This document shows, piece by piece, positions 4,389 to 27,830 of a stretch of DNA of 64,000 nt. The translations under genes were made by a program, and so were the position numbers. The notes below the pieces were generated by a model. That model saw nothing but the letters and a program-made list of their open reading frames with translations. It did not search any database and was not told the origin of the DNA. Each line of letters opens with the position of its first letter. Position 1 is the first letter of the stretch. Source of the stretch: an uncultured Candidatus Saccharibacteria bacterium (lineage in GTDB: Bacteria > Patescibacteriota > Minisyncoccia > Phycocordibacterales > EsbW-18); the NCBI GenBank assembly GCA_964478705.1, contig CAYZIR010000002.1, positions 23,760-87,759 on the forward strand, written 5' to 3'.

Positions 4389-6308
4389 CTACAAAATACT
4401 CTCTGGAAAAACATCAACAACGTACGACGGAGGAAGTGTACGAAGTGTCTCAACAACTCTCCGATCTGGCCATGATGTACTTGGCACACTGATGAGTGCG
4501 TGCGCGATAAACATTCCTTTTACTTTTGATATGAATGCGGGGTAAATCGTGATGGTGTAATCGGGAAGGAGGGTTTTGAGTATAGTGAGGTCAGTACGTA
4601 CAGTATCTTTGTCTCCTTTTCGAGTAATTTTGATGCATACGAAATATGGTGGATATCGAAAATCCTTTAATCGTTCTCCTTCGCCACGAACAAACGATAG
4701 TCCATCACCGCGTAGAGCATACATAAGAACCGGAAGCTCGGGCGAGCGTGTCTGTACCACTACGTGTTCACTGCTTGCTTCACGGAGCGACGTAATCAAT
4801 GAAAATGCACGCTCATGCATCCGTATATCGGGTAGTGATGTAAGCGTGTCGAGCGATGCGATAACTGATGTGCCAATGTGTGCACCGATGATGTAGGGCA
4901 AGGAGCGAGCGGTGCCAACAAGTATTCCGTTACCAGATGATTGCCACGCGGTTGCAACCTTCTCCGCTTCGGCGTGAGTTTTGATACTGTCACTCGATAT
5001 TGAAAAGAAGGGTAACGAAGGGAATTCACGCTTCACTGATGCTTCAACGGTTTCAGCACCTGCTCCGTACATGGCGAGGCGCCATCCTCCACAGACGGTG
5101 CAGAGTGTATCCGCATCTTTGGTACGTCCACATCGATGGCAGGCGAATAATCTTCCTGCACGTTCATCGTTTGTTCGTGTTGGCGATTGTCGGTGAAGTA
5201 CCATTGGTGCGTCGCACCGATCGCAGACAAGAATAGTTCCACAATCTCTACAAATGGTGAACGGGGCAAGACCTCGACGTGTTGCATAAATAAATGACAG
5301 AGAATTGGTATCAGCGCTTGTTTGTATTGCTCCGCGAGCAACTTCAGATATCACTGTAGGAGTAGCGTTTGTATCGTTTTCCGGGCGCATATCAACAATG
5401 GATACCGGCGCTCCTTCTTGGTGCATGCGAAGACGCATTGATTCATCGTAGGTGTGGTCGATTGTGTTAAGTATCGTACCTATACGAAGAAATGAGTCAG
5501 CGAATATGAGGGTTTTCCCGTATGTGCGCGCAAGAGTCTCGAAAGCCACACGAACGTCAAGAAATGGACGTGTAGCAATTTTATATGCAGGCGACGATTC
5601 GTGTTCAATGATGTATGAACGAATATCATCGCGCACCAATGAAAAACATACTGGTGTACCGACGAGTACTATAGATTCTTTTGACACAAGTGCTTTCGAC
5701 CACGTATCGCGGAACCGTTTTTTGGTGAGCGTACTCGTAATCAAAAAGCTCCGCTCTTCAATACCTCGCGATAATTGTTCGAACAGCACCTCAGCTTCTT
5801 TGATCGTAGGGGTAATAACAACGGTCGACTCGTTATTTGCTAAACCTTCCCGAATCATTACGCGGTATGATGCGTAGCGATCAGCGCGGGGCATTTGTAG
5901 TGTTTGTGGCGGATAGCGCGGGTTGTCATCTTTTTTTGTACCCAGTTTCTTTTTCTCTGCAGTGAACATGTCAGGCGATTCAAACATTGCCGAAGGCAAT
6001 AAATGTTCAAGAACTGCACCAAGAGGGGCTGCATGCATGTCAGCAATTGCTACCAGTGCCTGCATCATTCGCTCATCAAGCGAAGCATGCTTCACGACAC
6101 TGTCAATTTTTTTTGTCGCGAATGAAGCTTTGCGTAGCTCCGTTTTCAATGTCGACGCGTCTTTACTTTCGATAACCAACGCTATTGTCTTTCGAGAACG
6201 AATAGTGATTCGTACAAACGAGCCGACGGCAACAGCTTCTTTTGCGTAGTAGGAGAGAGCCTGTGGCGCAATCCCACGAAGGATTGGTACGACAGAAAGA
6301 ATGCGCAT
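4389..6308 (-). CDS. priA: primosomal protein N' (PriA helicase)
   Basis: N-terminal 3'-binding domain, helicase core and Cys-rich Zn-finger block (CRDCG...CDRC...CHRCG...CTVCG). Confidence 0.8.
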   Translation of the reverse strand: MRILSVVPILRGIAPQALSYYAKEAVAVGSFVRITIRSRKTIALVIESKDASTLKTELRKASFATKKIDSVVKHASLDERMMQALVAIADMHAAPLGAVLEHLLPSAMFESPDMFTAEKKKLGTKKDDNPRYPPQTLQMPRADRYASYRVMIREGLANNESTVVITPTIKEAEVLFEQLSRGIEERSFLITSTLTKKRFRDTWSKALVSKESIVLVGTPVCFSLVRDDIRSYIIEHESSPAYKIATRPFLDVRVAFETLARTYGKTLIFADSFLRIGTILNTIDHTYDESMRLRMHQEGAPVSIVDMRPENDTNATPTVISEVARGAIQTSADTNSLSFIYATRRGLAPFTICRDCGTILVCDRCDAPMVLHRQSPTRTNDERAGRLFACHRCGRTKDADTLCTVCGGWRLAMYGAGAETVEASVKREFPSLPFFSISSDSIKTHAEAEKVATAWQSSGNGILVGTARSLPYIIGAHIGTSVIASLDTLTSLPDIRMHERAFSLITSLREASSEHVVVQTRSPELPVLMYALRGDGLSFVRGEGERLKDFRYPPYFVCIKITRKGDKDTVRTDLTILKTLLPDYTITIYPAFISKVKGMFIAHALISVPSTSWPDRRVVETLRTLPPSYVVDVFPESIL

Positions 6309-6403
6309 AGTGAGGGTATGGTATCACGGCGGTATATCATAAAAGATGGGTATTTGAATAAAATCTTTGATAAGAATCAAAAAGAGCGTTACGATGGGAA
6401 CGC

Positions 6404-7417
6404 ATGAAATTCTTTGGAAAGAAACTCGGTATTGACCTTGGCACTGCAAACGTGCTCGTATTCGTGCCTGGCCGAGGCATTGTCCTCAATGAACCTTCGG
6501 TTGTCGCGGTGTCTGAATCAGACAATCGCATTCTCGCTATCGGGCTCGAAGCAAAACGGATGGTAGGGAAGACTCCCGAAGACATTATTGCCTACCGTCC
6601 TATGAAAGATGGCGTTATTGCGGATTACCGCGTCACGGAAGCAATGCTTCGTTATTTCATTGACAAGGCTCTCGGTAAGTGGAGCATCATCAAGCCTGAC
6701 GTTCTCATTTCTGTTCCTGCCGGCGTCACGTCGACAGAGCGACGCGCAGTGGTTGAAGCGGCAATCAAGGCTGGTGCAAAACAAGCATTCGTTATTAAAG
6801 AGCCGATTCTCGCAGCAATCGGTGCCGGTATTCCAATTCACGATCCGGAGGGTCATATGATTGTCGATATTGGTGGTGGAACAACGGATGTCGCTGTAAT
6901 CTCGCTCGGCGGTATTGTCACGTGCACATCAGTGAAGGTTGCAGGTAATAAAATTGATCAAGCAATCGTTGACTACGTGAAGAAGAATTATAATCTTGCG
7001 ATTGGTGAAAAAACTGCCGAGGAAATTAAAATCAAAATAGGTTCAGCGGTTCCTGTTGAAGAAGAGTTGTCATTAATTATCAAAGGGCGTGATGTTGTCA
7101 CGGGGCTTCCGCGTGAGATGGAAATGAAAACCAATGAGGTTGTGAAAGCGGTTCGTCGTGAACTGCGCGAGATGATTCGTGCTATCAAAGATGTCTTTCA
7201 AGAAACTCCGCCAGAACTTGCTGCCGATATCATCAGTAAGGGTATGACGATGACGGGAGGAACGTCACAGCTTCGCAATCTTCCCGAGCTGATGTTTCGC
7301 GCAACCGGCGTGAAGGCACGACTCGCTGACGAAGCGCTCTTTTGTGTAGCAAAGGGAACCGGTATTGCACTTGAGCATCTCGATACCTATAAGAAATCGA
7401 TCATCGCGAAACGTTAA
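6404..7417 (+). CDS. mreB: rod-shape determining protein MreB
   Basis: GIDLGTANVLVF actin-fold phosphate-1 motif; full length. Confidence 0.9.
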   Translation: MKFFGKKLGIDLGTANVLVFVPGRGIVLNEPSVVAVSESDNRILAIGLEAKRMVGKTPEDIIAYRPMKDGVIADYRVTEAMLRYFIDKALGKWSIIKPDVLISVPAGVTSTERRAVVEAAIKAGAKQAFVIKEPILAAIGAGIPIHDPEGHMIVDIGGGTTDVAVISLGGIVTCTSVKVAGNKIDQAIVDYVKKNYNLAIGEKTAEEIKIKIGSAVPVEEELSLIIKGRDVVTGLPREMEMKTNEVVKAVRRELREMIRAIKDVFQETPPELAADIISKGMTMTGGTSQLRNLPELMFRATGVKARLADEALFCVAKGTGIALEHLDTYKKSIIAKR

Positions 7418-7425
7418 TCACAAAG

Positions 7426-7503
7426 CATGTAACACGTATCATGTAGCATGAGACGTAGAGAAGGTAACGTTTTTGCTTTATGTTACATGATACGTGTTAC
7501 ATG
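7426..7503. repeat. 24-bp inverted repeat (22/24 match) with a 30-nt spacer, between mreB and holB
   Basis: catgtaacacgtatcatgtagcat ... atgttacatgatacgtgttacatg; the right arm overlaps the holB ORF start. Confidence 0.6.
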
Positions 7504-8174
7504 ATCTCCACCCTATGATTCTCAATCATCACGCATTCTTACTTCCAGGGCTTGGATCGCATGACGTATCGCGCATTCAAGATATTTTTAAAAAGAGCGT
7601 TGTATCTCTCACCGGGCGCATCGTAACCGTGACATCAACGATGCTTTCTGTTGACGAAGCGCGTCTCATCATTGATGAAAGTCTCATTAAACAGGATGCA
7701 GAGACACATTCTTATTTCATTATCGCAATCGACGGTGCAACTCGTGAAGCGCAGAACGCGCTTCTCAAAATTCTTGAGGAACCGCGAGACGGGGTATTCT
7801 TTTTCCTCGCCACTCCACGACCTGAGCGATTGCTACCGACATTTCGTTCTCGTCTCTACATGGATAGTGCGTTGCTTTCACTACTTGGGAAATTAGCAAC
7901 ACCTAGTGATGAGTTTCTTCAAGCGCCTTACAAAAAACGACTTGCCATTATTGCTCCTCTTATTGAAGAGGGTAATAAAGCGGGTGCATTCGAACTCATC
8001 ACGAATGCTTTGTACTCATTACACATTACACATCATACTTCTCCCACTGTTCTGTCTTCTCTCGATAGACTTCGCGACTATATAACGGACACTTCGTCGT
8101 CTTTGAAACAAATACTTGAATACAGCGCTCTTATGATTCCCCAGGTAGAACCCCACCACACAAGAAATTCATAG
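7494..8174 (+). CDS. holB: DNA polymerase III delta' subunit, minimal form
   Basis: AAA+ clamp-loader sensor motifs (NALLKILEEP, TFRSRL); only 226 aa. Confidence 0.65.
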   Translation: MLHDLHPMILNHHAFLLPGLGSHDVSRIQDIFKKSVVSLTGRIVTVTSTMLSVDEARLIIDESLIKQDAETHSYFIIAIDGATREAQNALLKILEEPRDGVFFFLATPRPERLLPTFRSRLYMDSALLSLLGKLATPSDEFLQAPYKKRLAIIAPLIEEGNKAGAFELITNALYSLHITHHTSPTVLSSLDRLRDYITDTSSSLKQILEYSALMIPQVEPHHTRNS

Positions 8175-21094: not shown

Positions 21095-22969
21095 ATGAGC
21101 AAAATCCTTGGAATCGATCTTGGAACAACAAACTCTGCTATGGCGGTGATGCAGGGAGGCGAGCCGACCATCATTGAGAACAGCGAGGGCGCACGAACGA
21201 CCCCGTCAATCGTTGCGGTCAGCAAGACAGGCGACCGTTTGGTTGGTTTGATCGCACGCCGTCAGGCCGTCACGAACCCAAAGAACACCATCTACGGCAT
21301 CAAGCGTTTGATGGGACACAAGTTTGATGAGGATGCGGTTCAGAAGGAGAAAACCGTCGTTCCCTACGAAATCATCCGCGCATCGGACGGTTCTGCTGCG
21401 GTGAAGATGAACGACAAGGAATACCGCCCAGAAGAGGTATCAGCGATGATCTTGGGAAAGCTTAAAGCAGATGCTGAAGCAAAACTTGGTGAGAAAATCA
21501 CCGAGGCGGTCATCACCGTGCCCGCATACTTCAATGACTCACAGCGAAAAGCGACCAAAGATGCTGGAGCGATTGCGGGGTTGGATGTGAAGCGTATCAT
21601 CAACGAACCAACAGCTGCAGCGCTTGCATACGGCTTCAACAAGAAAGCAAACGAGCAAATCGCGGTCTTCGACTTTGGTGGAGGAACATTCGACATTTCA
21701 GTGCTTGAGGTATCTGCAGCAGAAGGCGAGCAGAGTGTTGAAGTGAAGGCAACCGGTGGAGACAGCCACCTCGGAGGGCGTGACATCGACCAGAAGGTGA
21801 TTGAGTGGATCATCACTGAATACAAGAAGGAATCAGGTATCGACGTTTCAAAAGACCCACTCGCACTCCAGCGTTTGGACGAAGCAGCCGAAAAAGCAAA
21901 GATCGAACTCTCAACAGCAACAGAAACCGAAATCAATCTCCCATTCATCACGTCAGACTCGTCAGGTCCTCGTCACTTGGTGATGAAAATCTCTCGCGCA
22001 ACGCTCGAGAATATCGCACGCGAATTCATCGATCGTGCACTTACGATCACGAAGCAAGTTATTGCTGATTCACCATTTGAGATCAAAGATATTGATGAGG
22101 TGGTCTTGGTGGGAGGTCAGACCCGCATGCCAGCGATCCAGCAAGCGGTGAAAGAACTCTTCGGTAAAGAGCCAAACCGCTCAATCAACCCTGACGAAGT
22201 GGTAGCGCTTGGTGCTGCAATCCAGGCCGGCATCCTTCAAGGAGATGTCAAAGACGTGCTTTTGCTCGACGTGACCCCATTGTCGCTCGGTATTGAGACC
22301 TTGGGAGGTGTAGCAACAAAGCTTATCGAGAAGAACACCACCGTTCCTGCAAGCAAATCCCAGACCTTCTCGACTGCATCAGACAACCAGACCTCCGTTG
22401 AAATCCATGTGGTTCAAGGAGAACGCCCAATGGCGGCCGACAACAAAACACTCGGCCAATTTATCCTCGATGGTATTCCACCAGCACCTCGTGGTATGCC
22501 ACAAGTTGAGGTGACTTTTGACTTGGATGCAAACGGCATTCTTACCGTCAAAGCAAAGGATAAATCATCCGGCAAAGAGCAATCTATCCGTATCGAAGGC
22601 AGTGGAACCCTCTCTGAAACCGAAATCAACCGTATGAAAGCGGACGCAGAAGCGCATGCCGCAGAGGATGCAAAGAAGAAAGAGCTTGTGGACACTCGCA
22701 ACATGGCAGACCAGACAATCTTCACGGCAGAAAAAGCACTTAAAGACGCTGAAGGGAAGATCGGGGATGATGTGAAGACGTCAGTTACGGGAGCAATTGA
22801 GGAAGTACGCAAAGTGAAGGATGGAAGCGATATTGATGCGGTGAAGAAGGCGACGGAAGCATTGGTGACTGAGATGCAGAAGATTGGAGCTGCTATGCAG
22901 TCGCAGACCCCTCCGCAGGAAACTCCAAACGATGCAGCGGGAGGGGGTGAAGAAAAGAATGATCAATAA
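21095..22969 (+). CDS. dnaK: molecular chaperone DnaK (Hsp70)
   Basis: [16 protein letters not shown] and other Hsp70 signatures. Confidence 0.95.
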
Positions 22970-23147
22970 TGCGCCTTACCAGATTAACTTGGATAAGTAT
23001 GCCCCATAAGAAAAGCCAGTCTCACATTCAAGTTCGAGGTCCAAAGGGAAAATTTGTAAAAGATACTCCAGCAAATCGAAAAAAGAAGAATAACACCGTG
23101 GAACGAGTCCCTAATCCGGGATATGGAGATACCTAAGAATAACCAAC

Positions 23148-23176
23148 AATTCCGGCTTTATGCCGGAATTTGTGTT
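23148..23176 (+). terminator. rho-independent terminator of dnaK
   Basis: AATTCCGGC-tttat-GCCGGAATT followed by TGTGTT. Confidence 0.65.
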
Positions 23177-23201
23177 ATACAAGTGTCATGAATTCTTAAT
23201 T

Positions 23202-24686
23202 ATGCCTACTAAACGTCACACAATTTCTCTCAGCAAGCATCTGGATTTGACTCGCAAAAAATTGGAAAAGATTGGTGTTTTTGACGCAACCCTCGGTGTT
23301 GATACGAGACTCTTTATAGATCCTAAGCTTCTCATCAGATCTAAAATTCCCGAATTTAAGACGTCACGTTATAAAATACTGAAACATTTTGCCAAGCTGA
23401 TTCGCATTCATAAGCTATCTACTAAATCTTCACAGCTTGGCGAGATTGCGCTTTCAATGCTTGCGGTTCCCGAACCTCAAGGACTTGCGATTGGGTACGG
23501 ACATACGACGGATCGAGGTGTGGCAATTTCTGAATCAATCGCAAGAAAGATACTGTTACAGCTCAGTGAAATGATGTCTGTTGGATTGCAGGATAAAGAG
23601 TTGGTCGAACTAATGGCGCTGTTTGTGAAAGGATTTGCCTCCGACAGCATCAGTGATCTGTCGGCACATATTATTTATGACGATCTGTGTAGATATACAG
23701 AGCGAATAGCTAAAAAATTAAAGGTAGAAACAACACTTTTTGATGTAGGGGATAAAAAATACCAGTTACCTAAGCACCCTTTTAAAAACTCACAGGTAAT
23801 TTTTGTTCCTCACACTCTACTCAGCCCACTTCCTGTAGCTACTTCATGGGAGGAAATAGAAGCTGCTGCTGCACACAATCGAAAACTGAGGAAAACTTTT
23901 AGTGAAATTGTTAAGCCTAGTGTATATGCTGCGATCAAAGATTTGGAACGTCTGAATCCTGAGGAACGTGAGGATTTCAAGAGCGCGATAGAGAAGCTTG
24001 TTGAAGTCTATCAGGGTATTCGGGTATCGACATATAGCCTGCGACAAGATCGAAAGGGGTATTACGGCATCCAACCGTTTGTAGACAAGGAAGAGTCCAA
24101 TTATATTCCGTCTAACCTACCGACAACTGCGGAGGAACTAATCACTTCGGTTCGAGAGATTATCACACAGTACCAAAAATCTATTGAACATAATGCTGGT
24201 AATCGACTGCTCTATCATCGAACAAAATCAGGTTCAATTTTGAAAAATAAACCCCATAACGAAGACGTCGCTCAAAATTTGTTCTTCCAACTCGCTGATC
24301 AATACTGCTCAATGGCCAATATTCTTTTGTCCAGAGAGCCTAATGCGGGTATAGGTGCTGTTGATTTTTCATTAGGAAAAGGTTACGACTCTAAAATCTT
24401 AGTCGAAATCAAAAAATCTACCAACACTGGACTAGAGAGCGGCTACAAAAAACAAATAACGGCTTACGAGAAAAGCGAGTCATCAAAGCACTCTTTTTTT
24501 GTTGTGATTATCGTAAAGGAAGGAAAAAAGAAGAAAAATGAGTACCCCCCACAACTCCAAACGGTTAAAAATCTATACGACTCAAATGTCAGCAAATCTA
24601 TCTCTACTCCAGAATTGTTTATCATTGATGGCCTGATCTATCCCTCTCCCAGTAAGCGTCGTGAGAAAAGCAATACCTTATCTTAA
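23202..24686 (+). CDS. hypothetical protein with a PD-(D/E)xK-like motif near the C-terminus; candidate restriction endonuclease
   Basis: No recognised N-terminal domain; GAVDFSL...ILVEIKK fits D...ExK; AT-rich; first gene of a four-gene operon with an MTase. Confidence 0.4.
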   Translation: MPTKRHTISLSKHLDLTRKKLEKIGVFDATLGVDTRLFIDPKLLIRSKIPEFKTSRYKILKHFAKLIRIHKLSTKSSQLGEIALSMLAVPEPQGLAIGYGHTTDRGVAISESIARKILLQLSEMMSVGLQDKELVELMALFVKGFASDSISDLSAHIIYDDLCRYTERIAKKLKVETTLFDVGDKKYQLPKHPFKNSQVIFVPHTLLSPLPVATSWEEIEAAAAHNRKLRKTFSEIVKPSVYAAIKDLERLNPEEREDFKSAIEKLVEVYQGIRVSTYSLRQDRKGYYGIQPFVDKEESNYIPSNLPTTAEELITSVREIITQYQKSIEHNAGNRLLYHRTKSGSILKNKPHNEDVAQNLFFQLADQYCSMANILLSREPNAGIGAVDFSLGKGYDSKILVEIKKSTNTGLESGYKKQITAYEKSESSKHSFFVVIIVKEGKKKKNEYPPQLQTVKNLYDSNVSKSISTPELFIIDGLIYPSPSKRREKSNTLS

Positions 24687-24719
24687 TTTTATGGCCCTGT
24701 AGTAGGGTTGGGTTCAAAT

Positions 24720-25580
24720 ATGACCCCAGAACTGCTATATTTAAGGCCTCCCATGGCCACAAAAACGCAAACAAAGAAGGTGTTAGAGTCTGTTGGCCAG
24801 AAGCCGTATTTTCATGGTGATGATTTTGCCCTCTACCACGGCGATTCAATCGAACTCCTTTCAAAACTTCCTGAAAATTCAATCGACATGATTTTTGCCG
24901 ATCCTCCGTACAATCTCTCGAACGGAGGTTTTAGTGTTCATGCTGGACGCATGGTGAGTGTCAACAAGGGTGACTGGGACAGAAGTAAGGGTTTTCAAAA
25001 CGACTATGAATTTCATGTCCGCTGGCTCGAAGCCGTTCGTAAAGTACTAAAACCAGGAGGAACATTGTGGGTGAGTGGAACATATCACTCAATTTATCAA
25101 TGTGGCCATGCCATTCAATCGCTCGGATACCACATTTTGAATGATGTTTCGTGGTTTAAGCCAAACGCTTCGCCAAACTTAAGCTGCCGCTTCTTCACTG
25201 CAAGCCACGAAACATTAATTTGGGCACGCAAAGACAAGAAGGCAAAACACACCTTCAATTACGATAAAATGAAGAATGGTGATTGGGGTAGTGATTTCAT
25301 TAAAAAACCAGGGCTACAAATGCGCTCTGTCTGGTCTGTAGGAACACCAAAGCCGGACGAAAAGAAATTTGGTAAGCACCCGACACAAAAACCACTTGAA
25401 CTTTTGCGCCGTATTGTCCTGGCAAGTACCAAAAAAGGGGATATTGTTCTTGATCCATTCACCGGTAGTTCAACCACAGGTATCGCTGCTGCAAAAGAGG
25501 GTAGGAAGTTTATTGGTATTGATATGGAAAAGAACTACCTTGATCTTTCCGTTAAAAGGTTTAATTCTATTAAAATATGA
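24720..25580 (+). CDS. beta-class N6-adenine/N4-cytosine DNA methyltransferase
   Basis: Motif IV DPPY lies before motif I (DPFTGSSTTGIAA), i.e. beta-class permutation; the ORF track starts it at TTG 24708 but the first ATG is 24720. Confidence 0.85.
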   Translation: MTPELLYLRPPMATKTQTKKVLESVGQKPYFHGDDFALYHGDSIELLSKLPENSIDMIFADPPYNLSNGGFSVHAGRMVSVNKGDWDRSKGFQNDYEFHVRWLEAVRKVLKPGGTLWVSGTYHSIYQCGHAIQSLGYHILNDVSWFKPNASPNLSCRFFTASHETLIWARKDKKAKHTFNYDKMKNGDWGSDFIKKPGLQMRSVWSVGTPKPDEKKFGKHPTQKPLELLRRIVLASTKKGDIVLDPFTGSSTTGIAAAKEGRKFIGIDMEKNYLDLSVKRFNSIKI

Positions 25581-26098
25581 AAGAAGGTGGCTTTGGGGGA
25601 GGAAACACCATAACCGGATTAAACTTTGAAAAGGAGACGGATATCCTTTCTCTTTTGGCAACAAAAGCCGGATACGAAGTCAAAGACAACGTTATTTTCT
25701 ATGAAGGAAAGGAGGTTGCAAGAAACTATCGAAAAAATGGACTTTACAAGTTTCTCGAATCAAAAGGTGTCGACTATAAGAAAATTCTTTCCAAGAAACT
25801 CCTACCGGACGATGCACTTTATGTGATTTTAAACAACACTCTTTTTGTCATCGAAGTAAAGTTCCAAAAGGTTGCAGGTTCGGTTGACGAAAAGCTTCAA
25901 ACCTGCGATTACAAACGGAAACAGTACGCAAAATTGATGGCGCCTCTTAATATCGAGGTTGAGTATATTTATATTTTGAGCGACTGGTTTCGTGCAGAGT
26001 CTTATAAAGACACTTTAGATTACATAATCTCTGTTGGTTGTCAGTATTACTTCAAATATCTTCCTCTGCAAAAATTAGGATTGCCAGTACCGAACTAA
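25577..26098 (+). CDS. small PD-ExK-like protein, putative restriction endonuclease or partner subunit
   Basis: ATGA overlap with the MTase stop (translational coupling); DD...LFVIEVKFQK fits a D-x12-ExK core. Confidence 0.35.
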   Translation: MKEGGFGGGNTITGLNFEKETDILSLLATKAGYEVKDNVIFYEGKEVARNYRKNGLYKFLESKGVDYKKILSKKLLPDDALYVILNNTLFVIEVKFQKVAGSVDEKLQTCDYKRKQYAKLMAPLNIEVEYIYILSDWFRAESYKDTLDYIISVGCQYYFKYLPLQKLGLPVPN

Positions 26099-26106
26099 TC
26101 AAAAAA

Positions 26107-27789
26107 ATGCCTACAATAAATAATTCGACCAAGAAGACTCTTTCGAGTGTATTTGATAAGACTATTTTTAATATTCCTAGATACCAACGAGCTTACTCTT
26201 GGGAGGAAAGCAATTGGCGCGAATTGTGGGACGATATTAAAAATAATGTTCTAGAAAAAGACAAGGAGCATTTTCTTGGAGCAATAATTTATTATCATGG
26301 AGATTCCGGTGGCTCTCGATACACACATTATGAGGTCATTGACGGACAACAACGCATTACCACGCTCACAATCTTAATGCGTGTTCTATATGAAAAACTG
26401 AGAGAAAACAACGTTGAAGTCTATCAGAGATTTGCTGATGAACTCTATGAAAAATATATTGGTGATATAGAAAATGAAACTTTCTTCCTTAATTTAAGTA
26501 AAAAAGATCAAGTTTTCTTTAGAGAGTTTATCCAAAAGAGCGTTCCAATTAGAAAACAGGGGAAGTTAATTTCCAACAAAAGCATAAGAAAGTGTTATGA
26601 ATTTTTTGTAAAGAAAATCGATGACATTTCAAAAGAGAGCGGCATAAAAGAAATTGAAGAATTCTGTTGGGAATTAAAAAAGAAGCTCGAAACTAATTTG
26701 GTTTTTGTCGTCATTGATGTGAATACTGATGTAGATGCATATATGATTTTTGAAAGCATCAATTCCAAAAGACAAGGACTAACAACATCCGATCTTCTTA
26801 AAAACTATATATTTTCGGCTGCTGATCAATACGAAAAGATAAAGCCTGAATCAAAAAAATTATCAATTACAGAAGACGCATGGGACAGGATGGAACAAGA
26901 GCTAGACAGAATTGAAATAAACCAATATGTTCGACACTTTTGGATATCAAACTACGGAAAGGTTTTTGAGAAAGAACTTTATCAACAAATAAAACTCAAA
27001 TTCAATAATAATAACGAGGCGATATTAAACTTCTTTGAGAACGTCGTAACCGAGTCAGAGGCTTATTCGAGCATATTTAATGCAAACATTTCCAACTTTC
27101 CACAAGATGGTCTTCATGCGCTAGAACAACTACGTCAACTAAAAAATAGACAATACTACCCTTTAATACTATCTGCTTTGTCTGGGTGGCCTTCTCAGGA
27201 AGTTTCCGATCTCATAAAACAAATAGCTTCAGTGGCAGTTAGAAGAGCGCTTATTGGCAAAAACCCAAATGAACTAGAGAATTTCTTTGCTGAAAGCGCT
27301 TCAAAACTTAGAACCAAGAATGTTACCCCCCAAGATCTCATAACGATCCTTGCTACAGACTTCTGGATTGAAGACAGCGAGATCTTGGAAGAAATTAAAG
27401 ATACAGATTTCGAAGACCAGGAATACCTTGCAAAGTTCTTACTTAAGGAATTTGAAACAAGCAGTAATCCTGCCAATGAGAAAAGTCTTGGCAAGGTATC
27501 ACTTGAACATATTTTACCTAGAAATCCTGAGAGAGTTGAGGATTGGGATATGAAAGAAGATAGACAGACCGAGCTTGTTTGGAATATTGGCAATCTTGCC
27601 TTAATTGGTCAGACTTACAATAATAAGATGTCTAATAAATCTTTTTTAAAAAAGAAACCTTGGTTTAAGAAAACAGAAATTAAAACAACAGTTATTTTGG
27701 CAGAACACGAACAGTGGACAGAGAAGGAGATCTTAGAAAGAAACGCTCAGGTTGGAAAGTTTTTGATAAGATGGTGGGCAAAAAGTTAA
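26107..27789 (+). CDS. GmrSD-family type IV (modification-dependent) restriction enzyme-like protein (DUF262 + DUF1524)
   Basis: N-terminal DUF262 hallmarks (PRYQRAYSW, DGQQRITT); C-terminal His-Me/HNH-like block (SLEHILP...NIGNLALIG..YNN). Confidence 0.8.
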   Translation: MPTINNSTKKTLSSVFDKTIFNIPRYQRAYSWEESNWRELWDDIKNNVLEKDKEHFLGAIIYYHGDSGGSRYTHYEVIDGQQRITTLTILMRVLYEKLRENNVEVYQRFADELYEKYIGDIENETFFLNLSKKDQVFFREFIQKSVPIRKQGKLISNKSIRKCYEFFVKKIDDISKESGIKEIEEFCWELKKKLETNLVFVVIDVNTDVDAYMIFESINSKRQGLTTSDLLKNYIFSAADQYEKIKPESKKLSITEDAWDRMEQELDRIEINQYVRHFWISNYGKVFEKELYQQIKLKFNNNNEAILNFFENVVTESEAYSSIFNANISNFPQDGLHALEQLRQLKNRQYYPLILSALSGWPSQEVSDLIKQIASVAVRRALIGKNPNELENFFAESASKLRTKNVTPQDLITILATDFWIEDSEILEEIKDTDFEDQEYLAKFLLKEFETSSNPANEKSLGKVSLEHILPRNPERVEDWDMKEDRQTELVWNIGNLALIGQTYNNKMSNKSFLKKKPWFKKTEIKTTVILAEHEQWTEKEILERNAQVGKFLIRWWAKS

Positions 27790-27830
27790 AATAGGACAGA
27801 CACCTTTTTGAAAAATGGTAGAATGGGTGA

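Follow-up and report, generated by a model that had tools for sequence, protein, structure and literature searches.

We analysed a stretch of 64,000 nucleotides from an uncultured Candidatus Saccharibacteria bacterium (contig CAYZIR010000002.1, positions 23,760 to 87,759; hereafter the window, to which all positions refer), in which a gene on the forward strand at 23202 to 24686, including the stop codon, encodes a protein of 494 amino acids (aa), on which residues are numbered, and lies immediately upstream of a DNA methyltransferase (MTase) gene. This protein is a member of a large, catalogued and functionally uncharacterised family of fixed architecture, DUF8370-DUF8371, whose C-terminal part shows the motifs and the predicted topology of RecB-like PD-(D/E)xK nucleases; the family has no conserved partner, and the MTase is coupled to another gene. 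We consider it probable that the gene constitutes an autonomous, single-gene nuclease of two domains with a function in defence or exclusion, whose N-terminal domain would gate or target the RecB-like domain.

The open reading frame (ORF) described in an earlier note on this DNA does exist, and the strings GAVDFSL and SKILVEIKK quoted there are both found in its product, which is 100% identical to a database protein (P0001). Without interruption, frame +3 is open between an ATG at 23160 and the stop at 24686, and the ATG at 23202 yields the 494 aa. This latter start was accepted because the N-termini of homologs match it, and not the upstream ATG, in an alignment of 40 homologs with identities of 28–66%, and because the upstream ATG is covered by a hairpin. 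With a perfect 9-bp stem (AATTCCGGC-TTTAT-GCCGGAATT; 23148 to 23170, no strand assigned), this hairpin is terminator-like on both strands, lies upstream of the gene and ~180 nt past the stop codon of dnaK, and stands at the left edge of a low-GC island.

Among 5.8 billion proteins, searched by word index, there were 105 homologs at E ≤ 1e-3, including the identical P0001; many of them are proteins of 480–490 aa, with 28–66% identity and mostly from Patescibacteria. When 1.84 billion representatives of clusters at 50% identity were searched exhaustively with a profile, 3,797 clusters reached E ≤ 1e-3, and 919 of these also reached E ≤ 1e-30. The gene is thus not the orphan it had been taken for. 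Length and architecture are constant, with nearly all of the best 150 of the 3,797 clusters being full-length, at 460–500 aa. The identical protein and all word-indexed homologs carry the precomputed domains PF28123 (DUF8370) and PF28130 (DUF8371); truncated proteins show that the first is the N-terminal domain, and a protein with PF28130 only (P0105), which begins at about residue 200, shows that the second is the C-terminal part. Our protein presents both in N-to-C order, as on a family protein of ~470–490 aa, and it also matches PHROG 30194 over its full length (residues 7–486, E = 1.7e-72) and the PADLOC profile PDC-M36A over residues 31–211 (E = 1.4e-11). The latter profile is matched by all 40 aligned members, over the N-terminal ~200 residues only (best E = 4.9e-17). 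The earlier statement that there is no recognisable N-terminal domain holds for our local Pfam copy only, and it falls with the PF28123, PHROG 30194 and PDC-M36A matches; indeed, the local copies of Pfam and NCBIfam gave no usable match for the protein, which explains the impression, and the local Pfam predates the relevant models. Likewise, the suggestion of a possible new family has to give way, since the family is already catalogued as Pfam DUF8370 plus DUF8371 and as PHROG 30194, with no function attached. The homologs inspected are annotated by NCBI as "hypothetical protein", and one NCBI record as "DUF91 domain-containing".

In a scan with one genome per species, the family appeared in Patescibacteria, Acidobacteriota, Burkholderiales, Acinetobacter, Chitinimonas and Bacteroidota, and plasmid-borne homologs were found in Nitrosospira, Rhodobacter, Legionella and Sinorhizobium. 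This distribution is patchy, and truncated or frameshifted copies are frequent.

The C-terminal core, residues 338–494 (24213 to 24683, forward strand), was delimited from invariant columns, the order of elements in the AlphaFold2 (AF2) model, weak nuclease matches and Foldseek neighbours. Invariant among the 40 aligned homologs are E354, located in the first helix (24261-24263), D388 within a G-x-V-D motif (24363-24365), E402 and K404 within an E-x-K motif (24405-24407 and 24411-24413), and Q418 and Y422 within a Q-x-x-x-Y motif (24453-24455 and 24465-24467), as well as Q358, E379, F389 and E426; D476 and S484 are conserved near the C-terminus. A glutamate in helix 1, followed by G-x-V-D, E-x-K and Q-x-x-x-Y, is the motif set of RecB-family PD-(D/E)xK nucleases, such as RecB, AddB, Cas4 and lambda exonuclease. 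The D-(x)n-ExK motif that the earlier note had pointed out in this region is therefore beyond chance, because D388, E402 and K404 are invariant in the 40 homologs, down to 28% identity.

The full-length AF2 model built on this alignment was confident (pLDDT 84, pTM 0.84) and arranges the motifs in the order expected for the PD-(D/E)xK fold: a helix (354–372) carrying E354, a first strand with none of the listed motifs (375–378), a second strand (389–394) that begins just past D388, a third strand (397–405) carrying E402 and K404, a helix (411–424) carrying Q418 and Y422, and a last strand (428–437), again with no motif listed. This corresponds to an alpha-beta-beta-beta-alpha-beta core with the aspartate at the start of strand 2 and the ExK in strand 3, and with the QxxxY located, as in RecB and Cas4, in the helix after the ExK strand. 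The four-cysteine Fe-S cluster of Cas4 and AddB does not appear in the alignment, where just one cysteine, C369, is nearly invariant.

Database comparisons point in the same direction. In per-member scans of the 40 sequences, the recurrent sub-threshold Pfam matches belonged exclusively to PD-(D/E)xK families (NucS_C in five members, best E = 3.4e-4; PDDEXK_10 in five; SduA_C in four; Tox-REase-9 in four; HSDR_N in one), and the PADLOC scan gave weak matches to LmuA in two members and to Cas4 in one. The best local neighbours of the full-length model in the PDB, as found with Foldseek, were DdmD, Hna, Nt.BspD6I, SfsA (prob 0.69), CinB, Ecl18kI, PspGI, BglII, Can2, Card1, Mus81 and ACE1, and the top match in BFVD was a PD-(D/E)XK nuclease of Halogranum tailed virus 1 (prob 0.96, TMt 0.50, 137 columns). 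The structure prediction proposed earlier as a check thus agrees with a PD-(D/E)xK core, and the best structural neighbours are nucleases of this type, none of them significant by E-value: neither the full-length nor the N-domain model had a PDB match at E ≤ 1e-3. By sequence, a single-sequence search of the PDB gave two insignificant matches (E ~0.87) and a profile search none. Together, the motifs and the model support a predicted PD-(D/E)xK-type nuclease domain at the C-terminus, from which we infer nuclease activity; most likely, this domain would carry out Mg2+-dependent cleavage of DNA.

One homolog of 575 aa (P0355) has degenerate nuclease motifs (VMF for VDF, VAVK for VEIK), intact N-domain motifs and a C-terminal extension, which hints that the N-terminal domain might be retained without an active nuclease.

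The N-terminal domain, DUF8370/PF28123, comprises residues 1–212 (23202 to 23837, forward strand), as delimited from the alignments, the AF2 model and the PDC-M36A match. Its conservation equals that of the nuclease, with D34, F38, D40, P41, E91, Y99, D148, S151 and D152 being invariant. A separate AF2 model of this domain (pLDDT 87.5, pTM 0.86) is mostly helical, with a beta-hairpin, and its comparison with 350,542 PDB chains in Foldseek produced no meaningful match (best E 0.55, TM < 0.2). In a profile search with the N-terminal domain only, no DUF8370-bearing match had a recognisable different effector domain, and the sequences retrieved were either fragments, most of them short and apparently truncated, or full-length members of the family. 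As no fusions to other effectors were found, the domain is not a promiscuous sensor module but a fixed partner of the nuclease. With its invariant acidic cluster, it presumably controls or targets the attached nuclease. The string GFGPDSISDL was considered as a helix-hairpin-helix or HhH-GPD glycosylase motif and dropped, as neither profiles nor the fold supported it. Between both domains, and as part of DUF8371, the alignment and the AF2 model define a middle helical region at residues 213–337 (23838 to 24212, forward strand), with a stretch of low confidence in the model (212–244) and with R230, Y278, D283 and E329 conserved.

We then considered the genomic surroundings of the family, for which ORFs were called in 44 homolog loci and 131 flanking genes were scanned for families. 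Apart from the family itself, no cluster of neighbours occurs in more than six of the 44 loci. Moreover, tblastn searches with the MTase, the 173-aa ORF that follows it, and the GmrSD, dnaK, grpE and MBL genes of the window against ~50 homolog loci yielded one weak match to the MTase, with 24% identity, so that the association of our gene with R-M (restriction-modification) and GmrSD genes is seen in this genome and on its twin contig (L001) and nowhere else.

Neighbours related to defence and mobility recur in the loci. In three of them (L009, L010 and L012) the homolog has hsdM on one side and hsdS on the other, within a type I R-M operon with hsdR, accompanied in L009 by a Fic gene; in L014 it directly follows hsdM, and in L037, a partial locus, it has hsdR and hsdM on its upstream side. 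This type of placement is seen in at least two lineages, because the L014 homolog is just 41–43% identical to the clade of the other three. The flanking genes include five ResIII, four HsdM, three HsdS, four resolvase and two SLFN-type helicase plus MazG matches. In three unrelated loci (L008, L016 and L035) a MazG-like gene of 115 aa and an SLFN-type (DUF2075-like) helicase gene of 673–810 aa lie beside the homolog, a pair that is probably another defence cassette. Other homologs are next to ParDE (L007), on a small conjugative plasmid with an integrase and toxin-antitoxin genes as neighbours, and beside SIR2, DUF3427, GIY-YIG and AAA genes on a plasmid, and a divergent full-length homolog is cargo of a Tn3 element. 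A 257-aa ORF with an N-terminus that looks DUF4062-like by eye, with no family search, recurs downstream in L033, L034 and L039. In all, such surroundings are those of an accessory gene that is complete in itself and travels along with defence islands and mobile elements.

Some particular loci deserve mention. The L008 copy of the MazG and helicase pair (5598-7969) ends in a tail that appears by eye to be of S24/LexA type, with no family match for that region. In the complete Saccharibacteria genome CP064991.1 (L004), two ORFs without annotation stand close on either side of the homolog, one of 262 aa (5210-5998) that is 2 nt away from it upstream and one of 127 aa (7458-7841) that overlaps it by 4 nt downstream, and a type III-like Res/Mod pair is next door on the opposite strand; the three ORFs may form a lineage-specific operon.

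The MTase that follows our gene is a beta-class N6/N4 DNA methyltransferase (24753 to 25580, forward strand; PF01555, E = 6.6e-59; PADLOC MTase_II, 6.5e-100), with its best NCBIfam match being CcrM/HinfI-like. For its start we follow the gene as called on the twin contig; another possible start, a TTG at 24708, is open as well. The gap between the two genes is of 66 nt and, according to a promoter scan, contains a promoter-like site (24713-24741). Downstream, the MTase stop codon is overlapped by 4 nt (ATGA) by the ATG of a 173-aa ORF (25577 to 26098, forward strand), which holds LLPDDALYVILNNTLFVIEVKFQK, a literal PD...EVK motif, and weakly matches PDDEXK_11 (E = 1e-3). Relatives of this small ORF number more than 6,000. 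The ORF is immediately preceded by an MTase in all contexts looked at, which are of three different kinds (relatives in L052 and L053-L056); the preceding MTase is an N6_N4 enzyme in L052 and a D12 (Dam-like) enzyme in L053-L056; in the latter, a second N6_N4 MTase lies two genes downstream, in a DpnII-like layout. From the ATGA overlap, the motif and these contexts, the MTase and the 173-aa ORF make up a complete, translationally coupled R-M pair, with the small ORF being, as judged from its sequence, the likely cognate restriction endonuclease. Our gene is separate from this pair, given a gap of 66 nt to the MTase versus the overlap between MTase and 173-aa ORF. For a restriction endonuclease, the 173-aa protein shows uncommonly strong conservation, its best 120 relatives having 79–89% identity.

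As for sequence specificity, no other 4-bp palindrome in the window is as depleted as GATC (215 observed versus 352 expected under a maximal-order Markov model; observed/expected 0.61), and GANTC is not depleted (266 observed versus 288 expected). This is a hint that the R-M pair now present, or earlier ones, would target GATC and not the CcrM-type GANTC of the best NCBIfam match.

These lines of evidence lead us to prefer an autonomous defence or exclusion nuclease. Autonomy is argued by the constant architecture, by the absence of N-domain fusions from our profile search and by the lack of any neighbour cluster in more than six of the 44 loci, and a context of defence and mobility is argued by the hsd operons, ParDE, the conjugative plasmid, the Tn3 cargo, the SIR2 locus and the homology to PDC-M36A. 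The protein would act as a single-gene effector against phages or plasmids and not as a subunit of an R-M system. A more specific proposal, which we advance tentatively and hold to be somewhat less likely than otherwise, is that of a new single-gene anti-phage or anti-plasmid system whose N-terminal domain, with an unseen fold, would use an acidic pocket (D34, D40, E91, D148, D152) to sense infection or as a second catalytic site, and would gate the RecB-like nuclease. In a sharper version of the acidic-pocket proposal, the family might, like PrrC, act as a guard of R-M systems. The idea of a type IV enzyme, dependent on modification, was also considered and discarded, because the data give no support for a domain in this protein that reads modified bases.

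Several points weigh against an autonomous defence nuclease. No member has a significant match to a known nuclease, all Pfam matches being below gathering scores and all Foldseek matches at E > 0.01, and the literature holds no paper on DUF8370, DUF8371 or PDC-M36. The association with defence islands is partial, as many loci have housekeeping neighbours alone, such as prpB-prpC-acnD in Acinetobacter. That the N-terminal domain would regulate or target the nuclease, or form a second active site from its acidic residues, is pure conjecture on our part. Finally, there is no terminator-like site between our gene and the MTase, and both might be co-transcribed in this genome.

Among the alternatives, the one that survives best, and which we nevertheless judge unlikely, is that the nuclease serves the elements that carry it, in their transfer, recombination, addiction or stability. 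The Tn3 cargo, the conjugative plasmid with its integrase, the resolvases in four loci and the full-length match to PHROG 30194 agree with it, and RecB-like nucleases are often active in recombination. However, no recombinase, relaxase or replication gene is among the conserved neighbours in the 44 loci, a tblastn search of 50,697 phage genomes returned zero matches despite the PHROG match, and a location within type I R-M operons, as some homologs have, is characteristic of defence cargo.

A rather improbable alternative, at least for the family as a whole, is a "second line" effector similar to PrrC, which would be held inactive by an R-M complex, or would monitor it, and be set free once restriction is inhibited by a phage. 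PrrC is almost exclusively embedded in type I R-M systems (Payne et al., bioRxiv 10.1101/2024.01.29.577857). The copies between hsdM and hsdS, the one after hsdM and the abutment of our gene on an R-M pair in the window would fit such a role, which is attractive for the hsd-embedded copies. It cannot be general, though, as most members have no R-M genes nearby and, hence, no R-M partner is obligatory.

It is very improbable that the protein is a housekeeping nuclease of DNA repair or recombination: the RecB-like motifs and the loci with metabolic neighbours alone would agree with it, but the patchy taxonomy, from Patescibacteria, Acidobacteriota and Burkholderiales to Acinetobacter and plasmids, the low-GC island, the variable context and the frequent truncated or frameshifted copies do not. 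Least credible of all, and largely refuted by comparative context, is the proposal of the earlier note that the adjacent MTase has in this protein its cognate type II restriction endonuclease, or else a subunit for specificity or effector function, because the PD-(D/E)xK core and a position on the same strand, immediately upstream and with no terminator in between, are outweighed by the coupling of the MTase to a second endonuclease candidate, by the ~50 homolog loci that lack this MTase, the 173-aa ORF and the GmrSD gene, and by the lack of any nearby MTase in most homologs. Furthermore, the RecB-like QxxxY signature is typical of processing nucleases and not of sequence-specific type II enzymes. 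A new large type II restriction enzyme is thus not upheld, and the description of the gene as leading an R-M cassette is correct as to its position in this one genome and not beyond it.

The gene is the first of four in a low-GC island of ~4.8 kb (23000 to 27800, no strand assigned) between dnaK and an MBL-fold gene. The GC content is 0.40 for our gene, 0.43 for the MTase, 0.38 for the 173-aa ORF and 0.35 for the fourth gene, versus 0.51 for dnaK, 0.52 for the MBL gene and 0.47 for the whole window. The fourth gene (26107 to 27789, forward strand) encodes a GmrSD-like (DUF262 plus DUF1524) enzyme of type IV type (GmrSD_N, 4.4e-38; GmrSD_C, 2.1e-21), and its having the lowest GC content in the island suggests a separate acquisition. 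Its closest PADLOC match is HEC-06 (3.6e-107), an experimentally validated anti-phage protein (bioRxiv 10.1101/2024.01.29.577857). In our best reading, the island consists of three independent modules of defence type downstream of dnaK, namely our gene, the type II R-M pair and the GmrSD/HEC-06-like enzyme. Its edges show no notable flanking direct or inverted repeats and no tRNA genes, and a comparison with empty sites was uninformative, since no relative of the MBL gene beside the island exceeds 58% identity or shows synteny with dnaK. Between dnaK and our gene there is also a lysine-rich ORF of 55 aa (22969-23136, forward strand), which was called on the twin contig and for which no Pfam match was recorded.

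The interest of this family lies in its size and fixed architecture, with 3,797 clusters, in an N-terminal domain that is predicted with confidence and has no relative among solved structures, and in the clear prediction of its catalytic residues. Because its members recur, from Patescibacteria to Proteobacteria, within R-M operons and defence islands and on transposons and plasmids, the family is a sensible candidate for a role in defence. There is also a lesson for annotation, because the endonuclease of this R-M pair is likely the small ORF downstream of the MTase and not the large gene upstream.

With respect to known systems, our protein is a full-length member of DUF8370 plus DUF8371 and of PHROG 30194, from which it does not differ, neither the Pfam entries nor the PHROG carrying a function. 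The systems named PDC, PDC-M36 included, are candidates defined by their embedding in BREX, DISARM or type I R-M, and the supplement of Payne et al. (2024) gives PDC-M36 as a cassette composition without annotation (bioRxiv 10.1101/2024.01.29.577857). Our family resembles PDC-M36 in the N-terminal profile match of all members and in that some homologs are embedded in type I R-M, as PDCs are. It differs in that only positions ~28–214 of the 457 of the profile are matched, and in being a single gene and not a three-gene cassette (FAM_01399>>FAM_00303>>FAM_00303); indeed, no PDC-M36B match was found among the neighbours, so that neither a full-length PDC-M36A match nor the two B genes are present.

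The likeness to PrrC resides in the hsdM-hsdS placement of homologs in three loci; however, PrrC is an ABC-ATPase anticodon RNase that is almost exclusively embedded, whereas our family is of DNA-nuclease type and mostly not embedded. RecB, AddB, Cas4 and lambda exonuclease share with it the same motifs in the same order and the core topology, together with the weak Cas4 match of one member, although our family lacks the Fe-S cysteine cluster and a helicase partner, possesses a unique N-terminal domain and has no significant profile or structure match. Compared with Shedu (SduA) and Lamassu LmuA, the N-terminal domain is unrelated and there is no LmuB/SMC partner; the weak matches to SduA_C (four of the 40 members, best E 2.7e-3, with none for our protein itself) and LmuA (two of the 40) are far below family thresholds, also for SduA_C/DUF4263. 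Yet it is with these systems that our protein would share its general layout, with an N-terminal sensing or regulatory region followed by a C-terminal PD-(D/E)xK effector.

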